Shown here: positions 12,653 to 33,684 of the stretch, piece after piece
Numbering within the stretch: the stretch's first letter is position 1
Layout: every line of letters starts with the position of its first letter
DNA from: Thermoplasmatota archaeon
GTDB taxonomy: Archaea > Thermoplasmatota > E2 > DHVEG-1
Reading direction: 5' to 3'
Assembly: GCA_041550515.1 (NCBI GenBank)
Contig: JBFEOQ010000005.1
Location: forward strand, 1-50,746
Length of the DNA: 50,746 nt
Made by a program: the position numbers and the translations under genes
The notes under the pieces: generated by a model
Databases searched by the model: none
Seen by the model: the letters and a program-made list of their open reading frames with translations, nothing else
Told to the model about the DNA's origin: nothing

Positions 12653-13663
12653 TTGATAAAAGTTGAGATTATCGGAGGAAGTCTAAGCGGTTTAAGCACT
12701 GCAATATCTATTAAAGAATATAATAAATCTATTGATGTAGTTGTTTATGAAAAAAATAAAAAAATAGGCTATAATCATGAAGGACGTAGATGCGGTGAAG
12801 CTCATTCAATAGAAAAAGAATGGAGTAAATGGATTCCAGAAAAAAATAGCTATTATAATAAAATTAAAACTGGGTTAGTATACTTAGGAGATAAAAAACA
12901 TAGATATACTACTAAACCAGGAACTGGATATATTTTAAATAAACAAGAGTTTATCTGTCAACTTGCAAGAAAAGCAGAAAAATTAGGTGTAATAATTCAA
13001 ACAGATCATAAAATAAAATCAAAAGATGATCTTAATTCCGATTACATAGTTGATGCATCTGGATGTCCTAGTACAATTAAAAGAGAACTAAAATTAAATA
13101 AAGGTTTAAAAGGTGTATCTTATCAACAAACAATTGAAGACTCCAATTGTTTTATCTCTGATACAATAAAAATTTATTATATTGGTGAATTTGGGTATTA
13201 CTGGATTTTTCCAAGAAACCCTGATAAAAAAGAAGTTAACATCGGTATAGGTTTTATAAAAAATTTTGGTTATAATCTAAAAAATCTTTTAGAGGATTTT
13301 AAAATAAATCAAAATATTACAGGTAAAGTAAATTATATTACAGGCGGCTTGATACCTATTGGACTTCAACGACCTTTTAAGTATAATAATATTTTATTTG
13401 TTGGAGATGCCTCAGCAGGTACTTTTCCACCTACAGGTCAAGGTAATTATCGTGCATTATTGAGTGGTGATGTAGCAGGTAAATGTATAGCTTTTAATCA
13501 AGTTAATAAATATCCATATATGTTATATAAGATGTTTATAAAATGGGATGTAATATGTAAAATATTCACAACAACAAATCTTATCTGCAGAAATATAAAT
13601 CCAGATCTAGTTATAAAAAATTTTGAGTATTTAATTAAATTTGGGGTAAGAATTTTACATTGA
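12653..13663 (+). CDS. Geranylgeranyl-reductase-family FAD-dependent oxidoreductase (paralog 1)
   Basis: 336 aa from a TTG start. Shows an N-terminal dinucleotide-binding GGSLSG, an RCGEA motif and FVGDASAGTFPPTGQG. Shorter than typical GGRs. Confidence 0.65.
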   Translation: MIKVEIIGGSLSGLSTAISIKEYNKSIDVVVYEKNKKIGYNHEGRRCGEAHSIEKEWSKWIPEKNSYYNKIKTGLVYLGDKKHRYTTKPGTGYILNKQEFICQLARKAEKLGVIIQTDHKIKSKDDLNSDYIVDASGCPSTIKRELKLNKGLKGVSYQQTIEDSNCFISDTIKIYYIGEFGYYWIFPRNPDKKEVNIGIGFIKNFGYNLKNLLEDFKINQNITGKVNYITGGLIPIGLQRPFKYNNILFVGDASAGTFPPTGQGNYRALLSGDVAGKCIAFNQVNKYPYMLYKMFIKWDVICKIFTTTNLICRNINPDLVIKNFEYLIKFGVRILH

Positions 13664-15001: not shown

Positions 15002-16525
15002 ATGACAATTGTTATAGATGGTTCAAATCTAACAATTGAAAAACTAGTACAGGTTGCTAGAAACTTCGAAGAAATAAAACTACATCCTGATGCTATAAAA
15101 CGAATTAAAAAATGTAGAGATCTTCTTGATAAAAAGATAAAATCAAAAGAAATTATGTATGGTGTTAATACGGGAATTGGAGAATTCTCAGAAGTAGTTT
15201 TATCTGACCACCAAATTAAAAAATTCCAGAAATATTTAGTTTATAATCATGCAGCGGGAATAGGAGATCCTGCCCCAATAGAACATGTCCGTGGAGCGAT
15301 GCTTTCACGAGTTAATGTTCATGCTCATGGACAAAGCGGTTGTAGACTTGAAATAACACAAACTCTTGTTAAGATGATTAATAAGAATGTTACTCCTTTT
15401 ATTTGTCAGAAAGGCTCAGTCGGTGCTTGTGGAGATTTAGCACCAATGTCACAAATTGCACTTTTAATGCTTGGAGAGGGAAAAGCATATTACCGAGGAA
15501 AATTGTATAATGGAAAAGAAGCCATGAAAAAAGCAGGAATTCCTATCCCTGGTTTACAAGCAAGAGACGGACTTTCAATAATCAATGGTTGTAATGTACT
15601 TACTGCTATGAGCGCGATTTTATTATACGATGCTAACAATTTTTTTAAACAAGCAGAAATTGCTGCATCAATGAGCTTGGAAGCATTAAAAGCAAATATG
15701 AAGCCATATGCTCCAAAGTTACATAAAGCGCGTGGTTATCCAGGAGCAATACGAAGTGCTAAAGCTATATGTAAACTTGTAAAAGATGGAGATCTTCAGA
15801 AAGAGAAAATTAAAAGTAAAGTACAAGATGCTTATTCAATGCGTTCAACTCCACAAGTGATCGGTACTGCACACGATGCTCTTAATTGGGCTAAACAACA
15901 AGTTGAAATAGAGTTAAATGGTGTTGGTGACAACCCAGTATTTTTCCCTAAAGAAAATTTACAATTATCAGGAGCAAATTTCCAAGGATCACCTATAGGT
16001 CTTCCAATGGATATGGTGGGAATTGCTATAACTATGGTATGTATTTTAAGTGAAAGACGTATGAATCGGTTAAATAATCCATCGCTAAGTGTTGGATTAC
16101 CAGCTTTTTTAACAAAAGGCGCTGGAATGTTTTCAGGTTTAATGCTTAGCCAATATACTGCGGATCATTTAATTGTTGAGCAAAGAATACTTTCAAATCC
16201 CGGATCTATACAAAGTATTCCTGCTGCAGCTGACCAAGAAGATTTTGTAAGTATGGCTATGAATACAGCTATTAAAAACCAACAAATTTTAGATAATGCG
16301 TATGGTATTCTTGGTATTGAATTCATGGCTGCTGCACAAGCACTAGATTTTCGTAATTATAAATTTGGAAAGGGTGTAGCAAAAGCAAAAGAAGTAATTC
16401 GTCGACATATAAAGTTTTTAGATGAAGATAGACCACTTTATCCAGATCATACAAAAATGAAGGAAATTGTTAAATCTTGTGAAATACTTAATGAAGTTGA
16501 AAAAGTTATAGGTAATCTAGAATAA
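15002..16525 (+). CDS. hutH: Histidine ammonia-lyase (MIO enzyme) with Ala-Cys-Gly instead of Ala-Ser-Gly
   Basis: 507 aa. YGVNTGIG, GSVGACGDLAP, SIINGCN and QDAYSMR motifs. SD-like AAGGGGA lies upstream. Confidence 0.9.
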   Translation: MTIVIDGSNLTIEKLVQVARNFEEIKLHPDAIKRIKKCRDLLDKKIKSKEIMYGVNTGIGEFSEVVLSDHQIKKFQKYLVYNHAAGIGDPAPIEHVRGAMLSRVNVHAHGQSGCRLEITQTLVKMINKNVTPFICQKGSVGACGDLAPMSQIALLMLGEGKAYYRGKLYNGKEAMKKAGIPIPGLQARDGLSIINGCNVLTAMSAILLYDANNFFKQAEIAASMSLEALKANMKPYAPKLHKARGYPGAIRSAKAICKLVKDGDLQKEKIKSKVQDAYSMRSTPQVIGTAHDALNWAKQQVEIELNGVGDNPVFFPKENLQLSGANFQGSPIGLPMDMVGIAITMVCILSERRMNRLNNPSLSVGLPAFLTKGAGMFSGLMLSQYTADHLIVEQRILSNPGSIQSIPAAADQEDFVSMAMNTAIKNQQILDNAYGILGIEFMAAAQALDFRNYKFGKGVAKAKEVIRRHIKFLDEDRPLYPDHTKMKEIVKSCEILNEVEKVIGNLE

Positions 16526-16531
16526 AAATAT

Positions 16532-18181
16532 TCATTTTATCATTGGTAGATTTAAATCTGTTTTTTTTATAACAGTTAATGCTTCATTATAACCTGCATC
16601 TGCATGTCGTACTACACCAATACCAGGGTCTGTTTTAAACACTCTTTTAATTCTTTCATCTGTGTTTTCAGTTCCATCACAGACAACCACCATACCTGCA
16701 TGAGTACTTAGACCAATTCCTACTCCACCACCATTATGGATTTGCACACTATCTGCACCAGCTGCACAATTTAATAGTGCATTTAATAATGGCCAATCCG
16801 CAATAACATCACTACCATCTTTCATACTTTCAGTTTCACGATATGGCGATGCAACACTTCCGCTATCAAGATGATCTCGAGTTATTGCAATAGGTCCAAT
16901 TTCACCTTTTTTTACCATCTGATTAATTTTCAATGCGAATTTATCACGTTCACCATAACCTAGCCAGCAAACACGTGCAGGTAATCCTTCCCATGGTAAA
17001 AATTTTTCAGCGAGTTTAATCCAATTGCATAAAATATCATCTTTTGGAAACATTTCAATAACTGCTTTATCGGTTTTTATTATATCATCTGGATTTCCTG
17101 ATAGAGCTAACCATCTAAATGGACCTCTACCTATTGCAAGCATCGGCCTAATATATGATGGTACAAAACCAGGGTAGTTAAAAGCATTTTTTAAACCTGC
17201 CTTAAATGCTTGTCCACGTAGATTATTACCATAATCAAAAACAACTGTACCATTTTTCATAAAATCAAGCATTGATTTGCAATGAAATTTAATACTTTGC
17301 ATTGATTTTTTAATATAATCTTTAGGTTGATTTTTTCTTAGTAAATATGCTTCCTTTAAATTATCACCATAAAAACCTGATGGAATATAACCATTTAATT
17401 CATCATGAGCACTAGTTTGATCTGTTACAACATCAGGATTAAAACTATCTTTAACTAAGTTGGGTAAAATATCTGCACAATTTCCAAGAACAGCTATTGC
17501 CAAAGCTTGCTCTTTTGTTTTTGCATTTTGAGAAAGATATATTGCATCATTTATATCTTTAATTTTCTTATCACAAAAACCCGCTTTTAATCTTCTATCA
17601 ATCCGGTTTTCATCACACTCTATAGCAATACATATACCACCTGCCATTTTAACAGCAAGTGGTTGTGCACCACCCATTCCACCTAAACCACCAGTTAAAA
17701 CAATTTTTCCTTTGAGATTACTATTAAAATGTTTTTTTGCACAAGCTGAAAAAGTCTCATAGGTTCCCTGAATTATTCCTTGAGTTCCAATATAACACCA
17801 TGATCCTGCAGTCATCTGACCATACATTATAAGACCTAGTCTTTCAAGTTCATTAAAATTTTCCCATGTGCTCCAATGCGGTACAATATTGGAATTTGCC
17901 ATTACAACCCGTGGTGAGTTAACCCAAGTTTTAAAAACAGCAACAGGTTTACCAGATTGAATGACCAATGTTTCATCATTTTCAAGTTTTTTTAATGTAT
18001 CAACAATTTTTTTATAACAATCCCAATTCCGAGCAGCTTTACCTGTACCTCCATAAACAATTAATTCCTCTGGAATCTCTGCATTTTCTAAATTATTTTC
18101 AAGCATACGGAGAATAGCTTCTTGTTTCCAACCTTTACACCTGACATCCATACCTATTTTAGCCTTTATTTTAATCTTCAT
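16532..18181 (-). CDS. hutU: Urocanate hydratase
   Basis: The ORF track gives 16532..18265. I place the start at the internal Met (MKIKIKAKIGMDVRCKGWKQEA...) because the first 28 codons run through a GC-rich structured element. Family motifs present include YGGTGKAARNW and GGLGGMGGAQP. Confidence 0.88.
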   Translation of the reverse strand: MKIKIKAKIGMDVRCKGWKQEAILRMLENNLENAEIPEELIVYGGTGKAARNWDCYKKIVDTLKKLENDETLVIQSGKPVAVFKTWVNSPRVVMANSNIVPHWSTWENFNELERLGLIMYGQMTAGSWCYIGTQGIIQGTYETFSACAKKHFNSNLKGKIVLTGGLGGMGGAQPLAVKMAGGICIAIECDENRIDRRLKAGFCDKKIKDINDAIYLSQNAKTKEQALAIAVLGNCADILPNLVKDSFNPDVVTDQTSAHDELNGYIPSGFYGDNLKEAYLLRKNQPKDYIKKSMQSIKFHCKSMLDFMKNGTVVFDYGNNLRGQAFKAGLKNAFNYPGFVPSYIRPMLAIGRGPFRWLALSGNPDDIIKTDKAVIEMFPKDDILCNWIKLAEKFLPWEGLPARVCWLGYGERDKFALKINQMVKKGEIGPIAITRDHLDSGSVASPYRETESMKDGSDVIADWPLLNALLNCAAGADSVQIHNGGGVGIGLSTHAGMVVVCDGTENTDERIKRVFKTDPGIGVVRHADAGYNEALTVIKKTDLNLPMIK

Positions 18182-18244
18182 AAAAACCAGTTGAATATAT
18201 CTAAAAACTATACTTAAAACTTTTTTTATATAAAGTAGTAAAAA

Positions 18245-18316
18245 GGAAGGATTGGCTGGCCTCACTAGGAGGGGATGGGATGCACTCTAACAAAAACTAC
18301 CAGCCCGATTCCTTCC
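18245..18316. ncRNA. GC-rich structured element E1 (unknown RNA, or terminator-like structure on the minus strand)
   Basis: GGAAGGA-UU-GGCUGG (18245-18259) pairs with CCAGCC-CGAU-UCCUUCC (18300-18316). This stem encloses a hairpin carrying the 18-nt core GGAGGGGATGGGATGCAC (18268-18285), which is identical to 37424-37441. On the minus strand the stem is followed by TTTTT. Confidence 0.3.
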
Positions 18317-18582: not shown

Positions 18583-18721
18583 GGAAAGGGTGTAATATCT
18601 TACTCTTATTAAAGTATTCTCTTAAATACAAACTAAATTTTATTTAAAAATAATAACAATTAAATGTAATATGTTGATTACCAACTGCTCAAAACAAAAA
18701 AATATGGGAGGTGTTTACCTT

Positions 18722-19792
18722 ATGTCAAATAGAAATATTATACATGTTGTTGGAACAGGTACTATTGGAGAACCCTTAATTGGTCTATTATGTGATGCAC
18801 AGGAAGATCTTGGTATAGACGAAGTAACATTTTATAAACATAGTCCAAAACTAACTGATAGACCAAAGATAAAAGGACTAATCAAAAGAGGCGCAAATCT
18901 TGCAGTAAACAAAGAAAAAACAACTGGATTTCAAGAATTAGGAATTGACCCTATGTACAATGAAGAAGAAGCAATTAGTCGTGCATCAGTTATAATTGAT
19001 TGTACACCAAAAGGTACAGGTATGATGAATAAAGAAAAATATTACAATAAATATAAAAACAAAGTCAAAGGATTTATGGCTCAAGGTTCAGAATTTGGTT
19101 TTGGCAAAATGTATGCTGTCGGAATCAATGATGAAGCAATAACCCCTAAAGATAAATTCATTCATATTGTCAGTTGTAATACCCATAATATTGCAGTTTT
19201 AATAAAAACACTGGGGCTAGAAAATAAAAATAAAAATTTTCTAAAAGAAGGACGTTTTCTATGCATTCGCCGTGCAAACGATATAAGTCAAGTTAAAAGC
19301 TTTATACCCTCCCCTGAAGTAGGTAGTCATAAAGATCCAAAGATGGGTACTCATCATGCAGTTGATGTGTATTATTTATATAAAACATTAGGAATTGATA
19401 TCAATGTTTTTTCAAGTGCACTTAAAATAAATACTCAATATATGCATTGTATATGGTTTGATTTAAAACTTGACAAGAAAATTACAAAAGATGAAGCAAT
19501 ACAAAAATTCATAGATAATCCACGTGTTGCAATCACACATAAAAATTCTGCAAATCTTGTATTTTCTTTTGGTCGAGAACATGGTCACTATGGTCGATTA
19601 CTTGATCAAACTGTTGTAGTAGTACCAACTATTCATGTTTTAAATGATAATGAAGTCATTGGTTTTTGTTTTACACCGCAGGATGGTAACAGTATACTGA
19701 GTAGTGTTACTGCAGCTGAGAGATTCTTGTATCCTAGTGAGTGGGAAGAAAAAATTAAATGTCTAGGAGCTTTTTTATTACAAGAAGTATAA
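18722..19792 (+). CDS. Divergent type II (archaeal) glyceraldehyde-3-phosphate-dehydrogenase-like oxidoreductase
   Basis: The ORF track starts at 18671. ATG 18722 is preceded by GGAGGTG at suitable spacing. Motifs VGTGTIGE (Rossmann), IIDCTPKG, catalytic-Cys motif VSCNTH (canonical VSCNTT), RRANDI and HHAVDV are in the same order as archaeal GAPDH. Confidence 0.6.
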   Translation: MSNRNIIHVVGTGTIGEPLIGLLCDAQEDLGIDEVTFYKHSPKLTDRPKIKGLIKRGANLAVNKEKTTGFQELGIDPMYNEEEAISRASVIIDCTPKGTGMMNKEKYYNKYKNKVKGFMAQGSEFGFGKMYAVGINDEAITPKDKFIHIVSCNTHNIAVLIKTLGLENKNKNFLKEGRFLCIRRANDISQVKSFIPSPEVGSHKDPKMGTHHAVDVYYLYKTLGIDINVFSSALKINTQYMHCIWFDLKLDKKITKDEAIQKFIDNPRVAITHKNSANLVFSFGREHGHYGRLLDQTVVVVPTIHVLNDNEVIGFCFTPQDGNSILSSVTAAERFLYPSEWEEKIKCLGAFLLQEV

Positions 19793-21192: not shown

Positions 21193-21596
21193 AATAAAAA
21201 AATAATATATTGGGAGAGTATATAAATCTTATTATAGTAATATCGATAATTATCGAATTATTTTTTGTTTTCTATATAAAAAAGATAAAAATAAATGAAT
21301 AACAGTGATAAATATTTTATTTTAATAGCAAAATAAAGTTACTTAAACAAAAAAATTTTAATACAAAAATATGAAGGATAAACTATTTAAACAGATAAAA
21401 AATAAACAGTCGTTCTTTAGGAGGATTTTAACTGAAAGAAGAAAAAGACACGTATATTAGTTTAAAAGATAGCCCATTTGTTTTTAATCCAAGTGATATT
21501 ACATTAAAAGATGATGCGTTTCATAGTTCAACTGCCCCTAGATTTACTGAGTGGTGGTATTTTGATGCCATATTTGATAATGGTTATAGCATTGAA

Positions 21597-22430
21597 TTGA
21601 ATATTAGAGTTTTAAGTATAATAAAAAATAGATATGCTATAATATATAAAAGAATAGATATATATAAAGAAGGTAAAATAATAAAACATTATAGAACAAG
21701 ATATCGTTTAAAGGATTTCGAAGCATCAAAACAATTCCCTAATGTTAAATTAGGTGGAAAGAAAGTTATTAAAGGAATTATTGATAAAAAGACTGGTAAA
21801 TTAGTATACGATGTTTTCTTTGAAATTCATGATACTTCAGTAAATTTAAGATTCAAATCTTGTACAAAAGGTTGGAAGGGAACGAATCCAGGAGGAGATG
21901 GATGGGTAGTAATATTACCTCGTGCAGAAGTTAAAGGTAAAATTAAACTAGATAGCGATGAGATAGATGTAAAAGGAATTGGATATCATGATCATAATTG
22001 GGATGTAAGATATTCAGTAACTAAAAATAACCATGGTTGGTTTTGGGGGAAAATTTATTCAGATAATTATACAGTCACTTGGGCAACAATATATAAAAAT
22101 AAGAATATAGGGCAGCCGCTTCTGGTTTTAAATGAAAATAATAAAGGATATATTAATTTCAAACCTGAGGAAATAAAATTTATTGGAGATAGACTAAGTT
22201 TAAAAAATAAAAAGAGGATTCCTCATCATTTTATACTTGAAGCAAATAATGGTAAAGAAAAAGTAAAAATTGAAATGGAAACTAAAGATCTTCATCATGA
22301 TACTGTAATGATAAGATATAATTACTGGCGTTATCATATGAATTGTACTGGAACAATTACTGTTGGTGATAATACAGAAAATGTTGAAGGTATACAGATT
22401 GCTGAATTTTTACGATTTAAGGATAAATAA
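21597..22430 (+). CDS. CrtC/AttH-like lipocalin-fold hydratase (carotenoid 1,2-hydratase family); the real N-terminus lies upstream
   Basis: The ORF track begins at TTG 21597, but the same frame is open back to 21432. That upstream stretch encodes the family-typical ...APRFTEWWYFDAIFDNGY. GIGYHDHNWD lies downstream. There is no ATG/GTG/TTG between 21432 and 21597. Confidence 0.6.
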   Translation: MNIRVLSIIKNRYAIIYKRIDIYKEGKIIKHYRTRYRLKDFEASKQFPNVKLGGKKVIKGIIDKKTGKLVYDVFFEIHDTSVNLRFKSCTKGWKGTNPGGDGWVVILPRAEVKGKIKLDSDEIDVKGIGYHDHNWDVRYSVTKNNHGWFWGKIYSDNYTVTWATIYKNKNIGQPLLVLNENNKGYINFKPEEIKFIGDRLSLKNKKRIPHHFILEANNGKEKVKIEMETKDLHHDTVMIRYNYWRYHMNCTGTITVGDNTENVEGIQIAEFLRFKDK

Positions 22431-22463
22431 TAATTTTTTTAGAAGAGATAAAATACAATTTGT

Positions 22464-23540
22464 TTAAATTGCGGCTCGCATTGGATCCCCACTAATAAGT
22501 TTATTTACAATAAAAAACCATATCAACGGAAAAAATATATAGATTAAAGCGATTATTCCACCAATAAGAGGTAAAAGTAATACTGGTGCTAAAAAATAGG
22601 TTGCAATTTCTCTTACTGCCATTACTTTCATAAGTCTATTTCGTTCAAAAAATTTGAAATACATAGTTTTTAACATTGATACCATTATTATAATTGAAAG
22701 TAAAATAAGACTAAGAGATAATAAATATAAATTTATACTTCCATCATAGAATTTATTATAAAAAATTAATGGTAAAAAAGCAATTAGCAAATTAATTATT
22801 TGTATAAATACAACAAAAGTTCTAAAACCCTTTGGAATAATAAGTTTTAGGATTTTTCCATCTCCTTCCACTTTTACACCGAATACCATAGGAAATGTTT
22901 TTACACCAAATTCTGAATCATTTTTGATATCTTTTAAATGTCCAAGAATTGCAGTATTTATCCATAATTGAAAAAATCCTAGAATGCTAAGTATATAAAC
23001 TAAGGATGGTATCAATAAAATATTATTATATTTCCCTGCGTAAGCAGCTCCAAATAATATTATAAAAAAAACATAAAATGCTAAAAATAAAGCAGAGTGT
23101 AACCATTTTTTTGAGATTAATTGATAAATAATACCAGTTGTAGCACCTATAATTAATAATAAAAGACTTAAAAAGTTAAAATTTGAAAATAATATTATTA
23201 TTAATAGAATTATCAAACATATTATCATACCAATTAAAGCACTATTTTTAGAAATTACCCCGCTAACCAATGGTTTTTTTGATAGTTCGATATTTGCTCT
23301 ATCAATATCATAATCCATATAATCATTTAATATTTCCCCAAATATATGTGTAATAATTCCAACTAAAAATAAAGGAATAAAAATTTGTATAAGATTGTCT
23401 GGTATTAATTTATCTTTTAAAACAGAAAATGTTGCAAATGCTCCAAGGCTTGGCGTTAATGCTGTTGCTATTATTGTATGAATTCTTATTAAACGAAGAT
23501 AACCTTCGATTTTATCTTTAAAATTTGTCATATTTACCAA
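22464..23540 (-). CDS. UbiA-superfamily prenyltransferase (paralog A)
   Basis: 358 aa, polytopic membrane protein. First Asp-rich motif is LNDYMDYDIDRANIELSKKPLVSG. Second motif is LKDIKNDSEFGVKTF. Confidence 0.8.
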   Translation of the reverse strand: MVNMTNFKDKIEGYLRLIRIHTIIATALTPSLGAFATFSVLKDKLIPDNLIQIFIPLFLVGIITHIFGEILNDYMDYDIDRANIELSKKPLVSGVISKNSALIGMIICLIILLIIILFSNFNFLSLLLLIIGATTGIIYQLISKKWLHSALFLAFYVFFIILFGAAYAGKYNNILLIPSLVYILSILGFFQLWINTAILGHLKDIKNDSEFGVKTFPMVFGVKVEGDGKILKLIIPKGFRTFVVFIQIINLLIAFLPLIFYNKFYDGSINLYLLSLSLILLSIIIMVSMLKTMYFKFFERNRLMKVMAVREIATYFLAPVLLLPLIGGIIALIYIFFPLIWFFIVNKLISGDPMRAAI

Positions 23541-23704
23541 ATCAATAGCTATATATTTTACAATTTATTCCAGATAAACATTACTTAGAATAAAAAATTT
23601 TATATTAATTTTATTAATTTGTCAAACCAAAGTAAAACTTGACTATAAAAAAAAAATTGAAAACGATGGTTTTTTATGTTCTTTTTTACTACTGAAATTT
23701 CTAT

Positions 23705-24718
23705 ATGCCAATTAGAGAATATTTAAAATTATCTAGGTCATTTAATGCTGTACTAACAGGTGTTTCTCCTGTCATGGGTGCTATTGCAATGGAGGAATAC
23801 AATATAATTACTCTTTTTTTTCTCTTTTTAATAGGTTTTTTTGGACATACGTATGGATTTGTTTTAAATGATATCATTGATTATAATATTGATAAAACAT
23901 CAAAAGAAATAAGTGATCGACCATTAGTTAGTGGTACTATCTCTATAAAAAAAGCTTGGATTTATGCTATTTTTTCAATGATAATTTCTTTTATCATTGC
24001 TTTTTATTTAGCATTTATAACTAATATATATTACCCAATTTTTATACTTGCATTATCAGCTATTTTTGTTACAATTTATGATCTAATAAGTAAAAAAATC
24101 TCAGGTATGGATATAATTTTAACAATTAGTATTTTCTTTTTAATACTCTATGGTGCTTCAACTGTTGTCAATGATATTTTTAATGTTACAAAATTAGCAT
24201 TAATAGTGTGTATTCTTGGTTCTATCCAGGTTTTATTTATGAATGCAATTGCTGCTGGTATGAAAGATATTGGAAATGACTATAAACGAGGAGCAAGAAC
24301 TCTTGCTATTAAAATGGGAGTTAGAATAATAAATGGTGAACTTAAAGTTCCTTTCACATTTAAATCATTAGCTTATGGAATTCAATTAGTAGACATTTTG
24401 ATAGTGTTTTTACCCTTTTTTATAGTGTGGAATGTAACTAAATTATCAATATTACAATATTTACAATGGGGAATCATTATCATCATTGGAATAATTTTAT
24501 TCGTTTTATCAAGTAAGTTATTAAATATGAAATATTTCAATAGAAAAAAAGCAAGAATGTATATAGGTAGCCATTATATGATTAATTTCACAATTGTCCC
24601 AATAATGCTTATGACACTTAATCCATGGGCAATAATAATTATGTTTTTACCCGGCTTAGGATTTATATTATCAAATATTATATTACATGGAACAATTACA
24701 CAACCAAAAACTATGTAA
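23705..24718 (+). CDS. UbiA-superfamily prenyltransferase (paralog B, divergent from A)
   Basis: 337 aa, polytopic. LNDIIDYNIDKTSKEISDRPLVSG, IYDLISKK and MKDIGNDYKRGARTL align motif-for-motif with paralog A. Confidence 0.8.
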   Translation: MPIREYLKLSRSFNAVLTGVSPVMGAIAMEEYNIITLFFLFLIGFFGHTYGFVLNDIIDYNIDKTSKEISDRPLVSGTISIKKAWIYAIFSMIISFIIAFYLAFITNIYYPIFILALSAIFVTIYDLISKKISGMDIILTISIFFLILYGASTVVNDIFNVTKLALIVCILGSIQVLFMNAIAAGMKDIGNDYKRGARTLAIKMGVRIINGELKVPFTFKSLAYGIQLVDILIVFLPFFIVWNVTKLSILQYLQWGIIIIIGIILFVLSSKLLNMKYFNRKKARMYIGSHYMINFTIVPIMLMTLNPWAIIIMFLPGLGFILSNIILHGTITQPKTM

Positions 24719-24801
24719 AAAAACTTTTACATTTTAAATAGTTAAAACTACTAAATTTTTAAGTTATAATTATTTATATAACATAAAACTTTACTTATTT
24801 T

Positions 24802-25932
24802 GTGTATGATATAATAATAGTCGGTGGTAATTTATCAGGAGCCACTGCCGCAATTAATGCAGCCAACTACGGAGCAAAAGTTGTATTGGTTGAAAAAAAT
24901 AAAAAACCTTTTTTCCCACCTCGTTGTGGAGAAGCTACTGAAGAAATAACAGCTAATATATTAAATCTTGATAAAATTGGATGTCCTAAAAATCAAATAA
25001 AAAAAATTACAATAAATGTATCTAGTAAGAAAGAATATAATTTTAAAACAAATCATGGGATTTATATTATTGATAGGTATTTTCTTGAAAAATATTTGAT
25101 TAAACATGCAGAACAAAAAGGTGTACATGTCATTCTAGGAAGTAGAATGACAAATTTTAATCCTCCAAAAGAAATTGTTCTAGATAATAAAAAAACTCTA
25201 GAAGGTAAAATTATAATTGATGCAACTGGTATAAGTTGTCAAATTGGGAAAAAAATTAGAAACGATATAGAACTAAAACCAAGTGATATTGGAGTCTGTA
25301 TTCAAAGTAGAGTAGAAGGAAATTTCAATTCTGATACTATGAAAATGTGGTATGGTAAACCTTTTGCACCTTTTGGATATTCCTGGTGTTTTCCAAAAAA
25401 TGAAACATTAGCAAATATTGGAATTGGAGTACCCGGTGGTCAAAAATTAAATTTATCCTATTTACTAGATAAGTATATAGAATACGAAGTAAAAGATAAA
25501 TTTAAAGTTTTAAATACATTTCATTCATGTGTTCCAGCATCAGAACCATTAGATCCTCTTATAAAAGATAACATAATTTTTATTGGTGATGCTGCTAGAT
25601 TCGCTAATCCTATATTTGAAAATGGTATTAATAATGCAATATTTTCAGGGAGTTTAGCAGGAGTAGTTGCTGCAAAATATATTAAAGGAGATATTTTAAC
25701 TCTTAAAACTTATGAACAACTTATGAAAAATAAAGTAAAAAGATTAAAAAAGGCATACTACAAAAAAAATAAACTAATAACTGAAGAAAAATATAACAAG
25801 TCATTTAAAAGGATGTTTTCATTGCTTTCTTCTTTAAATAAAATTTTTCCAAACATCTTACAAAATCAATTTATAAAAATGTTAAAAAATGATAAAAAAG
25901 TTTTAGATTCTATTAGAAAAAACGAATATTAG
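24802..25932 (+). CDS. Geranylgeranyl-reductase-family flavoprotein (paralog 2)
   Basis: 376 aa from a GTG start. IIIVGGNLSGATAA FAD-binding fold, PRCGEA and FIGDAARFANPIFENGINNA motifs. Confidence 0.8.
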   Translation: MYDIIIVGGNLSGATAAINAANYGAKVVLVEKNKKPFFPPRCGEATEEITANILNLDKIGCPKNQIKKITINVSSKKEYNFKTNHGIYIIDRYFLEKYLIKHAEQKGVHVILGSRMTNFNPPKEIVLDNKKTLEGKIIIDATGISCQIGKKIRNDIELKPSDIGVCIQSRVEGNFNSDTMKMWYGKPFAPFGYSWCFPKNETLANIGIGVPGGQKLNLSYLLDKYIEYEVKDKFKVLNTFHSCVPASEPLDPLIKDNIIFIGDAARFANPIFENGINNAIFSGSLAGVVAAKYIKGDILTLKTYEQLMKNKVKRLKKAYYKKNKLITEEKYNKSFKRMFSLLSSLNKIFPNILQNQFIKMLKNDKKVLDSIRKNEY

Positions 25933-25938
25933 TGGGTC

Positions 25939-27333
25939 ATGATGACAAATAAAAAAGTATGTATAATCGGTGCAGGAATTGGAGGACTTGCATCAGCAGT
26001 ATTACTTACTAAAAAAGGATATAAAGTTACAGTTTTTGAAAAAGAACCTCAAATAGGTGGAAGAGCACTATCTATTAAAGGTTCAACCATTACATTAAAT
26101 GAGTATAAAAATCTTCTAGCTCGTTTCCATATGGGTATCGCTTTTTCTGAACCAAATATAGAAACAATTTTTGATAAAAAAATGTTAGATAATTATGTTT
26201 TAGATCTAGGTTTTCATATATTAAGTGGTGGTTTTCCGTTGAACATTAAAAATCTTTTAGCAGAAAATAATAATCATATCGATTTCCTTGAATCATATCT
26301 TGGTTTTATTGAAGGTAATAAGTATAAATTCCCCTTTCTTTCCAAATTAGATAAACTGAAAATTGCACCGAATATATTTAGACTACTTTTTGCAAATGAA
26401 AAAACATTAAAAGAATTAGATAGAGTTTCAATTTCAGATACAATTAAAAAATATGGAAAAGGAAAAATGAAGTTGATTTTAGAGGTTTTTTCAAGATCGA
26501 TCACAACTATGAATAATCTTGATAAGATTTCATCGGGGGAGATGCTGCGTGCTCAAAAGAATCTATATAAAGGTTCAAAACCAGTAGCATACCCAAAAAA
26601 TGGTCTTATAAGTATTAATAATGAATTTGTAGATTTCATCATAAAACATGGTGGAGAGATAAAGTTAAATACTTTTGTTAATCAAATTCTAATAAAGGAT
26701 ATGAAAGCCATAGGGATAAAAGTTCAAGATAAAGAAAAATATTATGATATAATTATATCAAATATAATTGTACAAGATCTTTTTAATATAGTAAATGAAA
26801 AAAATTTTCCAATAGAATACACTAATTATATTAAATCTCTTAAAGGAACTGGTAGTCTTTGTGCTTATTATTCTTTGAAAAAAGTCCCAAATGATTTAAT
26901 TGGTAAATCTTTTCATTTTATTGAAAGAAATGTTGGTTTAGAAGGAAATGATGCTGTTGGAATGATTGATTTCATGGTTTCATCATCTGATTCAGGTCTT
27001 TCACCTAAAGAAGAATATCTTGTTCAATCATATATCATTTGTAATCCTGATGAGGCAATAAATCATTTAACTTTAAAGAAATTAAGAGAATTATTAGATA
27101 AAAATCTAAAGGTTTTAATTCCAGATTATAAAAAACAACTTATTTGGGTGATTTATCCAGTTATTTGGCATCTTGATGGTGTTGCAAAAACAATTGATAA
27201 TCAAAAACCAGATATAATCACTCCTATAGAAAATCTTTATTTAGTAGGTGATTGTGTAAAGGCACCTGGTATCGGATTAAATTGTGCTTTAAATTCTGCA
27301 AAAATTGCAACAGATATTATACAAAAAAATTAA
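25939..27333 (+). CDS. Phytoene-desaturase-family (CrtI/CrtD-like) FAD-dependent oxidoreductase
   Basis: 464 aa. VCIIGAGIGGLASAVLLTKKGYKVTVFEKEPQIGGRA dinucleotide-binding motif and C-terminal LYLVGDCVKAPGIG. Starts 6 nt after the GGR stop. Confidence 0.8.
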   Translation: MMTNKKVCIIGAGIGGLASAVLLTKKGYKVTVFEKEPQIGGRALSIKGSTITLNEYKNLLARFHMGIAFSEPNIETIFDKKMLDNYVLDLGFHILSGGFPLNIKNLLAENNNHIDFLESYLGFIEGNKYKFPFLSKLDKLKIAPNIFRLLFANEKTLKELDRVSISDTIKKYGKGKMKLILEVFSRSITTMNNLDKISSGEMLRAQKNLYKGSKPVAYPKNGLISINNEFVDFIIKHGGEIKLNTFVNQILIKDMKAIGIKVQDKEKYYDIIISNIIVQDLFNIVNEKNFPIEYTNYIKSLKGTGSLCAYYSLKKVPNDLIGKSFHFIERNVGLEGNDAVGMIDFMVSSSDSGLSPKEEYLVQSYIICNPDEAINHLTLKKLRELLDKNLKVLIPDYKKQLIWVIYPVIWHLDGVAKTIDNQKPDIITPIENLYLVGDCVKAPGIGLNCALNSAKIATDIIQKN

Positions 27334-27418
27334 ATTTTATTAATGTAGTATGTTTCTAAATATTTTCAAAGAAATTTTTTAAAAAGTTTTTAATAGATTG
27401 GTAAGATATTATTATACA

Positions 27419-28438
27419 ATGGAGAAACCCAAATTGGAATCAAAAATTAAAATTCCTGGTAAATGGACAATGAAAGAACCTTACTCAAAATCAAGGTTTC
27501 TTTCAAAACAAGCACGTGGTGCTCTTGATCTTTTTAGACCTTTTACTCTTGCTCCACCTATAATAGTTTCTATGTCTATCATGGTTGCAAGCTTAATTTA
27601 TAATTATAATAATGGAAATCTAAATCCTAATGAAATTTCTGAATATTGGTGGATTACAATCGGGCAAGCAGCTTTAACAATTGCTTTAGTTAATGCAGCT
27701 TCAAACTCTCTTAATCAAGCAGCTGATGTTGATTCTGATAAAATATCAAAACCATATAGACCTATACCTCGTGAAATAATAAAACCTGAAAGTGCTCAAA
27801 GTCTTGCTTATATACTATATCTTTTTGCTCTTCTTCGTGCTATTACTATTAATTTCTGGTTCGGAGTTTTTATATTTTTAATTATCATTTTCACAGTAAC
27901 TTATTCACTTCCTCCAAGAATAAAAAGATATTTATTTATAAATCAAGTATGGATAGCTATACCACGTGGACTTTTTGGAATTCTTGCGTCTTGGAGTGTT
28001 TTTGGCTCTGAGAATCTTTTTAATGATGCTACACCATGGGTAATTGGAGGAATTGCAATGACATATTTAATAGGAGGAATGGCAACAAAAGACATAACTG
28101 ATGCGGAAGCAGATAGAGCAACAGGCATCAGTACTCTCATAAATACAATTGGTGTAAAAAAAACAGCCTTGATCTGCTTACCCTTTATGCTTTTTCCATT
28201 TCTTTTTATCTTTATATTTATACATGCAGGTTTAATTGATGGCTATCTTTGGCCTTTAAGTCTTTTCATGTTTCTTAGCTTATTCATATTTTATCTTATG
28301 ATTAAAGGTTTAGAAAGTAAAACTCTTGAAAATGTTCAAGCATGGTCAATTATGTATGTTGAGTATATCTTTTTTGCACTTAGTTTTGCTATACTTACAA
28401 TGTTTAGTGATAAGATAACTATTCTAAATTTTGCTTAG
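27419..28438 (+). CDS. UbiA-superfamily prenyltransferase (paralog C, DGGGP-synthase/chlorophyll-synthase-like motifs)
   Basis: The ORF track starts at TTG 27398. I prefer ATG 27419. Motifs are NQAADVDSDKISKPYRPIPRE and KDITDAEADRATGISTL. Polytopic membrane protein. Confidence 0.78.
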   Translation: MEKPKLESKIKIPGKWTMKEPYSKSRFLSKQARGALDLFRPFTLAPPIIVSMSIMVASLIYNYNNGNLNPNEISEYWWITIGQAALTIALVNAASNSLNQAADVDSDKISKPYRPIPREIIKPESAQSLAYILYLFALLRAITINFWFGVFIFLIIIFTVTYSLPPRIKRYLFINQVWIAIPRGLFGILASWSVFGSENLFNDATPWVIGGIAMTYLIGGMATKDITDAEADRATGISTLINTIGVKKTALICLPFMLFPFLFIFIFIHAGLIDGYLWPLSLFMFLSLFIFYLMIKGLESKTLENVQAWSIMYVEYIFFALSFAILTMFSDKITILNFA

Positions 28439-33556: not shown

Positions 33557-33684
33557 TGTCGGGGGCGGGATTTGAGCCCGCGACCTCCTGATATCTTAGC
33601 GCCGAAAGGCTTATTTTATTTTTTCGAACCCTTTAAAGCTTAGCTTATGAGTCAGGCGCTCTAACCAAGCTGAGCCACCCCGAC
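33557..33684 (-). tRNA. tRNA-Met (or Ile2) with anticodon CAU and a 53-nt intron at the canonical 37/38 position
   Basis: Manual fold: acceptor GTCGGGG/CCCCGAC, D arm GCTC-AGCTTGGTTA-GAGC, anticodon stem CCTGA/TCAGG, loop CTCATA|intron|A, variable AGGTC, T arm GCGGG-CTCAAAT-CCCGC, discriminator A. G1-C72 argues for elongator rather than initiator. Confidence 0.85.

Follow-up and report, generated by a model that had tools for sequence, protein, structure and literature searches.

A recurrent gene cluster of UbiA-family prenyltransferases, flavoproteins and a hydratase-like protein in uncultured Thermoplasmatota, and its possible part in tailoring isoprenoid membrane lipids

We analysed a 50,746 nucleotide stretch of DNA from a Thermoplasmatota archaeon (contig JBFEOQ010000005.1 of assembly GCA_041550515.1; the whole stretch is called the window here), in which six adjacent genes had been read, from the letters alone, as an isoprenoid-tailoring island (the original prediction). 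These genes encode a hydratase-like protein (HYD), three UbiA-family prenyltransferases (UbiA-A, UbiA-B and UbiA-C), a flavoprotein of the geranylgeranyl reductase (GGR) family (GGR2) and a CrtI-like FAD protein. The window is an archaeal fragment of low GC content (~28%) which encodes TFB, eIF2-gamma, FtsZ and an intron-containing tRNA. Database records for its proteins come only from short metagenome contigs, and homologs of the cluster genes are almost all from uncultured Thermoplasmatota, including the MBG-D (Marine Benthic Group D) metagenome-assembled genomes (MAGs) 'Thermoplasmatales archaeon SG8-52-1' and 'SG8-52-4'. The features of the cluster are as follows.

21420..21425, + strand: Shine-Dalgarno-like GGAGGA, 6 nt 5' of the CTG of HYD
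21432..22430, + strand: HYD, AttH/CrtC-fold hydratase-like gene, 332 aa, apparent CTG start (first canonical start at 21597)
22464..23540, - strand: UbiA-A, PF01040 79.7 bits (2.7e-22), convergent with HYD and divergent from UbiA-B
23705..24718, + strand: UbiA-B, PF01040 75.9 bits
24802..25932, + strand: GGR2, geranylgeranyl-reductase-family flavoprotein, GGR_cat 56.7 bits, TIGR02032 162.6
25939..27333, + strand: CrtI-like FAD protein, Amino_oxidase (residues 14-459) and NAD_binding_8
27419..28438, + strand: UbiA-C (open reading frame from TTG 27398), PF01040 113.2 bits (1.6e-32)

The open reading frames (ORFs) and the Pfam and NCBIfam matches, or in the case of HYD the fold, agree with the families first assigned to the six genes, and all of the motifs quoted for them are present in the translations. 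Intergenic gaps in cluster order are 33, 164, 83, 6 and 64 nt; of the gaps originally given after UbiA-B, those of 83 and 6 nt stand as they were, and that of about 85 nt is correct when counted from ATG 27419 and becomes 64 nt if UbiA-C opens at TTG 27398. Orthologs of UbiA-C are 339 aa long, which fits ATG 27419, probably the true start. The spacing is operon-like, with one-strand gaps of 6-85 nt. A sigma-70 promoter scan returned 72 sites against 61.5 expected, a sigma-70 model being uninformative for an archaeon. Phytoene synthase, polyprenyl synthase, geranylgeranylglyceryl phosphate synthase (GGGPS) and ring-biosynthesis genes were not found among the scanned ORFs of the window, in line with what had been said of phytoene synthase, GGGPS and ring-biosynthesis genes at the outset.

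Scanning one genome per GTDB species with a HYD profile returned 80 loci, whose synteny was compared by tblastn, blastp and a UbiA tree, with UbiA-B used as an independent second anchor (loci are numbered with the prefix L). The cluster recurs in ~15 independent MBG-D/Thermoplasmatota loci. Conservation of the six-gene synteny, which the original prediction had put forward as a check, holds in close relatives, where the same six genes stand in the same order (L002 and L003, HYD 79% identical; L083, HYD 92%), and breaks down more widely, GGR often being replaced by a fourth UbiA paralog and HYD being missing in L088 and duplicated in L008 and L087. A more distant set of loci (L007, L008, L010, L011, L030, L032, L040, L045 and L048) combines HYD with a UbiA-B ortholog (58-68% identical) and one or two A-like paralogs: A1, usually divergent and adjoining HYD, and A2, which lies between UbiA-B and the CrtI-like gene, the place that GGR2 takes in the window. 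The CrtI-like gene (57-67%; missing in L007) and UbiA-C (58-70%) are usually present there too, and the cluster genes are often co-directional with short gaps, as in L010 and L048. L004 and L005 hold HYD, A1 and GGR2, and only HYD and an A-like UbiA were found in L031, L035 and L037.

The UbiA-B anchor added L086 (B, a family 2 glycosyltransferase (GT2), two UbiAs, GGR2, HYD, an IS110 transposase fragment and the CrtI-like gene), L087 (two HYDs, B, A1, A2, the CrtI-like gene and C) and L088, in the complete MBG-D MAG CP070836.1, where an A ortholog, B, GGR2, the CrtI-like gene and C are found with no HYD within 8 kb of the cluster. A heliorhodopsin gene (PF18761) lies at 1-617 of L088, ~7 kb 5' of this UbiA/GGR/CrtI-like cluster, the copy without HYD nearby. 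The island of L008 (2947-15809) is larger still, with seven UbiA genes, a GT2 and two copies of HYD. The GT2 proteins of L008 and L086 (9880-11088 in L086) have HpnB (195 bits) and CruG (183 bits) as their best matches, both below cut-off; HpnB and CruG are glycosyltransferases of hopanoids and hydroxylated carotenoids.

Conservation is strongest for UbiA-B and UbiA-C (89-98% identity in close relatives, 58-72% in distant ones). A UbiA-A ortholog occupies the same position in L002, L003, L083 and L088, and GGR2 belongs to the cluster in L002, L003, L083, L084, L086 and L088. Synteny across the HYD- and UbiA-B-anchored loci therefore defines a conserved core of UbiA-B, one or more A-like paralogs, the CrtI-like gene and UbiA-C, with HYD frequent and GGR2 and GT2 variable, and the precise set of six genes is confined to a sublineage. 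Coincidental adjacency is ruled out by this synteny, and a recurrence of three UbiA genes inside 6 kb at ~15 loci is far more than chance would give. The outcome that had been named as speaking against the island, with each UbiA falling into a housekeeping orthogroup and the neighbourhood unconserved in relatives, is not what was found, as no equivalog cut-off was reached by the UbiAs and the cluster recurs.

All three UbiA proteins are intact members of the UbiA superfamily of intramembrane prenyltransferases, with PF01040 scores of 79.7, 75.9 and 113.2 bits for A, B and C (gathering cut-off 34.2 bits) and two Asp-rich motifs each (patterns N[DQ]xxDxxxD and DxxxDxxxG or DxxDxxxD). The predicted paralogy of UbiA-A and UbiA-B was borne out (32% identical, E 5e-31), as was the distinctness of UbiA-C, for which a pairwise comparison with UbiA-B gave no significant similarity. 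The best NCBIfam models for the three proteins are PRK12884 'prenyltransferase' or models of digeranylgeranylglyceryl phosphate (DGGGP) synthase (DGGGPS), at 52-80 bits against cut-offs of 269-353; for UbiA-B the best match is PRK12884 (70 bits vs 269), and the cluster UbiA paralogs of relatives score 67-95 bits vs 269. The DGGGP synthase models NF009521, NF009522 and NF009523 remained below cut-off for all three (A 52.5/296, B 70.4/269, C 79.6/269), and the models for 4-hydroxybenzoate polyprenyltransferase, MenA/MqnP, heme O synthase, ChlG and HPT gave at most 66 bits against cut-offs of 180-436. A family of LyeJ/CrtEb type was not among the NCBIfam matches, in a comparison that included no LyeJ/CrtEb reference or model. 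The nearest structures are Methanocaldococcus jannaschii DGGGPS 6M31 (4e-6), then chlorophyll synthase, for UbiA-C, chlorophyll synthase (2e-7) for UbiA-A and ApUbiA (8e-4) for UbiA-B.

UbiA-C carries NQxxDxxxD...KPYRPIP as its first motif and KDxxDxxxDxxxG as its second, the consensus of its clade being NQxxDxxIDxINKPYRPIPxG ... KDFxDxxGDxxxGxxTLP. An exhaustive search with UbiA-C returned 1507 cluster representatives at E<=1e-3, 56 of them at E<=1e-30, and the nearest clusters bear generic database names or none. Among the 69 nearest full-length representatives (28-49% identity) no NCBIfam match was obtained at 1e-40, save one to PRK12884 at 3.5e-41; because these neighbours are as unassignable as UbiA-C itself, the protein belongs to an uncharacterised UbiA clade. 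UbiA-A is fast-evolving and restricted to a narrow lineage, with only 51 database relatives. Of the three UbiAs, UbiA-B is the best conserved; it is abundant in databases, with orthologs of 58-98% identity in every cluster-bearing locus, including SG8-52-1 and SG8-52-4. Database names gave no placement for it, its best 120 matches all being orthologs of at least 66% identity with generic names. A tblastn search against plasmids gave no match for UbiA-A and one weak match, to a haloarchaeal DGGGPS, for UbiA-C.

GGR2 is a member of the GGR family by TIGR02032 (162.6 vs a cut-off of 158.8) and GGR_cat (56.7 vs 27), and the digeranylgeranylglycerophospholipid reductase equivalogs all scored below their cut-offs on it (122/580, 107/780 and 67/700). 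The further GGR-like gene reported at 12653 is real (12653-13663, + strand; 30% identical to GGR2, E 1e-20; TIGR02032 93.6 vs 158.8); it is flanked by unrelated housekeeping genes and shows no sign of cluster membership. The CrtI-like protein reaches threshold at superfamily level only (Amino_oxidase 52.2 vs 19.8), and the phytoene desaturase and CrtD models stayed under their cut-offs (crtI_fam, TIGR02734, 65/238; CrtD 64/500 and 59/550). Its orthologs are 57-93% identical in at least 12 loci, and a profile of 11 of them compared with the PDB retrieved the Methanosarcina mazei protein 3KA7 (3e-20), carotene desaturase 4REP (3e-17), Pyrococcus furiosus PF1083/3NRN (6e-15) and CrtI 4DGK (1e-6), 3KA7 and 3NRN being archaeal structural-genomics proteins without known function. 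Because 3KA7, 3NRN and 4REP rank well above CrtI 4DGK, the CrtI-like protein belongs to an archaeal branch (3KA7/PF1083-like) of the phytoene-desaturase superfamily, found in organisms which make no carotenoids.

The start and integrity of HYD needed correction. The gene had been placed from 21371, where the ATG is out of frame, opens an ORF of 29 codons and is not kept in relatives. The HYD frame opens immediately 3' of a stop codon, at CTG 21432, and HYD homologs of ~333 aa begin at this position. The codon is CTG in the window and in L083 and L084, which are independent contigs, and TTG in L002 and L003; the GGAGGA is kept in the window, L083, L084 and L002, with one mismatch in L003. The 55 N-terminal codons are intact, and differ from those of L083 by 7 synonymous and 4 non-synonymous codon changes. 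A start at TTG 21597, the first canonical one, would lose the invariant EWWYFD block, and gene-caller output indeed shortens HYD to 277 aa without the invariant motif (P0003, P0008-P0010). A frameshift or pseudogene was ruled out by the CTG and in-frame N-terminus kept in three independent contigs and by the coding-like codon changes. Since the start position, the GGAGGA and the coding-like N-terminal codons are shared with relatives, HYD is most likely an intact gene that initiates at the non-canonical codon CTG 21432.

Neither the 277-aa form nor the full-length HYD matched Pfam or NCBIfam at threshold (no Pfam match at E 0.001); the N-terminal domain of PF07143 (CrtC) reached 19.6 bits against a gathering threshold of 22.5, weak CrtC Pfam matches were seen in 23 of the 25 HYD homologs (best E 1.9e-5), and a HYD family profile aligned to PDB entries 7A0Q (CrtC domain, E 0.0026) and AttH 2ICH (E 0.23) over the GYHDHNW region. 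Because Pfam and NCBIfam gave nothing at threshold, the fold was predicted. The AlphaFold model (25 homologs) is all-beta, with pLDDT 91.2 and pTM 0.90, and Foldseek placed AttH 2ICH first (E 1e-11, TM 0.65, probability 1.0), with kievitone hydratase 7A0T (TM 0.60), 25-phosphosteroid lyase 9FZN (TM 0.57) and the fungal decalin Diels-Alderases Fsa2, Phm7 and CghA also at probability 1.0. The predicted structure has the two-lobed lipocalin-like beta-barrel of the AttH/CrtC-like superfamily; the label 'CrtC/AttH-like' given originally is thus right at the level of fold, where the model supports it, and falls short by Pfam. The EWWYFD and GYHDHN motifs, which lie partly 5' of the canonical start at 21597, are invariant across HYD homologs, and the invariant polar residues of the family are Y185, H186, D187, H188 and N189 with E40, D45, R74, H288, R300 and H302. 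We infer a hydratase function for HYD, and this polar block strengthens it.

HYD homologs are spread over Thermoplasmatota, Asgard and Chloroflexota, and lie no further than 3 kb from a UbiA gene in 18 of 49 Thermoplasmatota cases vs 0 of 36 in Asgard, Chloroflexota and others. The UbiA-linked proteins fall in two deep clades (33-39% identity between them), mostly without an N-terminal hydrophobic segment, as in HYD itself, which is soluble and has none; the unlinked homologs are ~385 aa long and have such a segment. No B12-radical-SAM gene adjoins HYD in any locus examined. In Asgard loci L054, L057, L058, L062, L063, L066, L069, L076 and L078 the AttH-like gene ends a co-directional, tightly spaced operon in the order FAD_binding_4 oxidase, CCG/4Fe-4S protein, second FAD oxidase, AttH-like gene (e.g. 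L058 5114-10975). This GlcDEF-like layout recurs in 19-21 loci and may be another pairing of a dehydrogenase with an AttH-like hydratase.

Four known systems offer points of comparison, and a literature search found no paper on the present gene cluster. The AttH-like protein Hgs forms monohydroxylated and dihydroxylated glycerol dialkyl glycerol tetraethers (OH- and 2OH-GDGTs) when expressed in Thermococcus kodakarensis, its gene overlaps that of the B12-radical-SAM tetraether desaturase Ted, and AttH-like hydratases act at tertiary carbons (10.1101/2025.10.20.683597). Like the Ted-Hgs pair of Bathyarchaeota from Guaymas (Garcia et al.), the cluster couples an AttH-like protein to an enzyme that could supply a C=C bond, and hydration to a tertiary alcohol is expected; unlike it, the partners are a CrtI-family flavoprotein and UbiAs in place of a B12-radical-SAM desaturase. 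Homologs of Hgs occur almost only in Methanobacteriota and Bathyarchaeota and are reported missing in Thermoplasmatota and Asgard (10.1101/2025.10.20.683597), and because these taxonomic ranges differ from that of HYD, the two proteins probably belong to different AttH-like subfamilies.

The second system is hydroxyarchaeol formation in Methanosarcina acetivorans, for which the phytoene-desaturase homolog MA0127, now named Has, is responsible (Mori et al. 2015), with unsaturated archaeol intermediates as its substrates; a CrtI homologue with this role in Methanosarcina had been mentioned in the original prediction, and the literature agrees. Has, too, is a protein of the CrtI/phytoene desaturase (PDS) superfamily in an archaeon without a carotenoid pathway; in the cluster such a protein stands beside DGGGPS-like and GGR-like genes. 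The closest solved structure of the CrtI-like protein is also from Methanosarcina (the M. mazei oxidoreductase 3KA7), kinship with Has being at superfamily level, and the cluster differs in that a separate AttH-like, hydratase-like gene accompanies the CrtI-like enzyme. In the carotenoid systems, LyeJ-CrtD-CruF of haloarchaeal bacterioruberin synthesis and CrtC-CrtD of purple bacteria, a UbiA-family enzyme, a CrtI-family flavoenzyme and a hydratase likewise adjoin, and CrtC, with kievitone hydratase, has its fold and motif region in common with HYD; CruF, in contrast, is a non-homologous membrane hydratase. The cluster lacks upstream carotenoid genes and has several UbiA paralogs vs one, and carotenoid equivalogs score far below cut-off on its proteins. 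The fourth is the core pathway of DGGGPS and GGR, to whose models and structure the UbiAs are closest and to whose family GGR2 belongs as a bona fide member, but the scores are well below cut-off, the UbiA family is expanded three- to seven-fold per locus, and the cluster UbiAs are ~340 aa long vs ~280 aa for the DGGGPS models.

The cluster combines DGGGPS-like UbiAs and a GGR with proteins related, at family level, to both of the archaeal enzymes known to hydroxylate lipids (AttH-like and PDS-like). The most economical reading, which we favour with modest confidence, is a lineage-specific operon of MBG-D-type Thermoplasmatota for the assembly or tailoring of a membrane lipid of isoprenoid, probably ether, type, which would gain one or more tertiary hydroxyls and become partly and selectively saturated. 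The UbiAs would transfer prenyl chains, one perhaps as DGGGP synthase and the others with alternative acceptors or donors; their multiplicity could mean that donors or acceptors differ, that there is a second alkylation step, that a chain undergoes LyeJ-like C-prenylation, or that cyclase-type chemistry is involved. The CrtI-like enzyme would create or keep a C=C bond, either as a desaturase like CrtD or as a flavin analog of the radical-SAM Ted, or it may instead hydrate the C=C bond itself, like Has. HYD would hydrate an isoprene C=C bond to a tertiary alcohol, the type of reaction known for CrtC, kievitone hydratase and Hgs, GGR2 would saturate leftover double bonds, and in some relatives the CruG/HpnB-like GT2 might glycosylate the new hydroxyl. 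Archaeol appears to be dominant in a related uncultured Thermoplasmatota group. Of the tailored-isoprenoid reading originally proposed for the six genes, the conserved cluster stands and leans to a hydroxylated ether lipid, and the quinone and carotenoid options offered with it are less favoured by the evidence.

Several points weigh against an operon for hydroxylated lipids. No lipid is on record for these uncultured archaea, and we infer the enzyme roles. HYD is only a remote member of the AttH family, with its Pfam CrtC match below threshold, and is probably not an ortholog of Hgs, which Thermoplasmatota are reported to lack (10.1101/2025.10.20.683597); Diels-Alderases and a phospho-lyase share the AttH-like fold as well. 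Some clusters lack HYD or GGR2 (L088 for the former, L007-L048 for the latter), a simple hydroxylation route leaves three or four prenyltransferases unexplained, and UbiA-B or UbiA-C may be ordinary core enzymes.

This last point leads to the alternative that survives best, that of an ordinary ether-lipid operon with a few accessory genes, in which MBG-D would have UbiA-B or UbiA-C as its divergent DGGGP synthase and GGR2 as its lipid reductase. All three UbiAs score best on DGGGPS-type models (PRK12884, PRK12882 and PRK12883), UbiA-C has the M. jannaschii DGGGPS as its nearest structure, UbiA-B and UbiA-C are the most conserved genes of the cluster, and GGR2 passes the GGR subfamily cut-off. 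We nevertheless think it unlikely that core synthesis accounts for most of the cluster: the UbiA scores are three- to five-fold under the equivalog cut-offs, the 69 representatives nearest to UbiA-C resist assignment as much as it does, and a single DGGGPS would leave three to seven UbiA paralogs per cluster, along with the conserved CrtI-like and AttH-like partners, unexplained. Should UbiA-B or UbiA-C be a divergent DGGGP synthase, the island would mix core and tailoring genes.

More doubtful still is a pathway of carotenoid type, with lycopene-elongase-like (LyeJ/CrtEb) UbiAs, a 3,4-desaturase of CrtD type (the CrtI-like protein) and a 1,2-hydratase of CrtC type (HYD), leading to an elongated or hydroxylated and in some cases glycosylated carotenoid, perhaps tied to the heliorhodopsin of MBG-D. 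The family triad does match that of LyeJ, CrtD and CruF in bacterioruberin synthesis and that of CrtC with CrtD in purple bacteria, a carotene desaturase (4REP) is the second-best structure for the CrtI-like protein, a CruG-like GT2 is present in L008 and L086, and the heliorhodopsin gene stands 7 kb from the L088 cluster. Yet scans of the window and of the flanks covered in relatives turned up no phytoene synthase, CrtI proper, cyclase or polyprenyl synthase, proteins of non-carotenogenic archaea (3KA7 and PF1083) resemble the CrtI-like protein more than CrtI 4DGK does, the crtI_fam and CrtD models score far below cut-off, and the hosts are heterotrophs of anoxic sediments; this evidence against a carotenoid substrate is weak. 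Least probable of all is a prenylated aromatic compound, quinone- or chromanol-like, in which an aromatic head group would be prenylated by UbiA-C, with motifs like those of homogentisate phytyltransferase (HPT) and chlorophyll synthase (ChlG), or by the UbiA/MenA-like paralogs A and B, and GGR2 would saturate the side chain as menaquinone-specific prenyl reductases do, for although UbiA-C has the NQxxDxxxD...KPYxP motif and matches HPT at 65.6 bits and ChlG at 57-59 bits, orthologs of A and B carry the JGI name '4-hydroxybenzoate polyprenyltransferase' and quinone-saturating GGR paralogs are known, the aromatic-prenyltransferase equivalogs score far below cut-off and under the DGGGPS-type models, no gene for ring synthesis, methyltransferase, decarboxylase or hydroxylase is present in any cluster locus, and the AttH-like hydratase is given no role. 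As to product class, the evidence leans to hydroxylated ether lipids over quinones or carotenoids.

Around the cluster, the gene at 18671-19792 (+ strand) encodes a protein of 373 aa that is 79-98% identical across MBG-D loci, where it is always found 5' of an HD-domain gene and the cluster; without a match in Pfam, it is a divergent protein resembling type II glyceraldehyde-3-phosphate dehydrogenase (NF003251 99 vs 185 bits; PDB 1CF2 1e-16). Histidine ammonia-lyase and urocanase of the Hut pathway, at 15002-18265, are kept 5' of the cluster in L002, L030, L086 and L087, and fit the protein- and amino-acid-degrading lifestyle proposed for MBG-D. A tRNA with a long intron (33557-33684, - strand, 128 nt in total) is detected by Rfam and missed by ARAGORN.

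The genes described here form a real, conserved and previously undescribed isoprenoid gene cluster that follows known archaeal lipid-tailoring logic. MBG-D (Thermoprofundales-type) archaea are among the most widespread and abundant archaea of sediments, and their lipids are essentially undescribed. Hydroxylated archaeal lipids serve as biomarkers and temperature proxies. With two known routes of archaeal lipid hydroxylation, Has and Ted/Hgs, the cluster is a testable candidate for a third; its six genes, all of them short, lend themselves to expression in the same heterologous hosts that served for Has and Hgs. A possible role for orphan archaeal UbiA, GGR and CrtI paralogs is suggested as well. 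More tentatively, and as a bolder form of the hydroxylated-lipid reading which we regard as possible but doubtful, the cluster may encode a pathway, as yet undescribed, by which MBG-D makes membrane lipids of a new archaeal class, with several DGGGPS-like UbiA paralogs attaching or branching prenyl chains and a flavin (CrtI-type) desaturase and an AttH-like hydratase installing tertiary hydroxyls that are glycosylated in some lineages. If this is true, the Asgard operon of FAD oxidases, Fe-S protein and AttH-like protein would be a third variant of the logic that pairs a dehydrogenase with an AttH hydratase, and the cluster itself would parallel the radical-SAM Ted/Hgs route with flavin-based chemistry and might be a source, so far overlooked, of hydroxylated archaeol or GDGT biomarkers.

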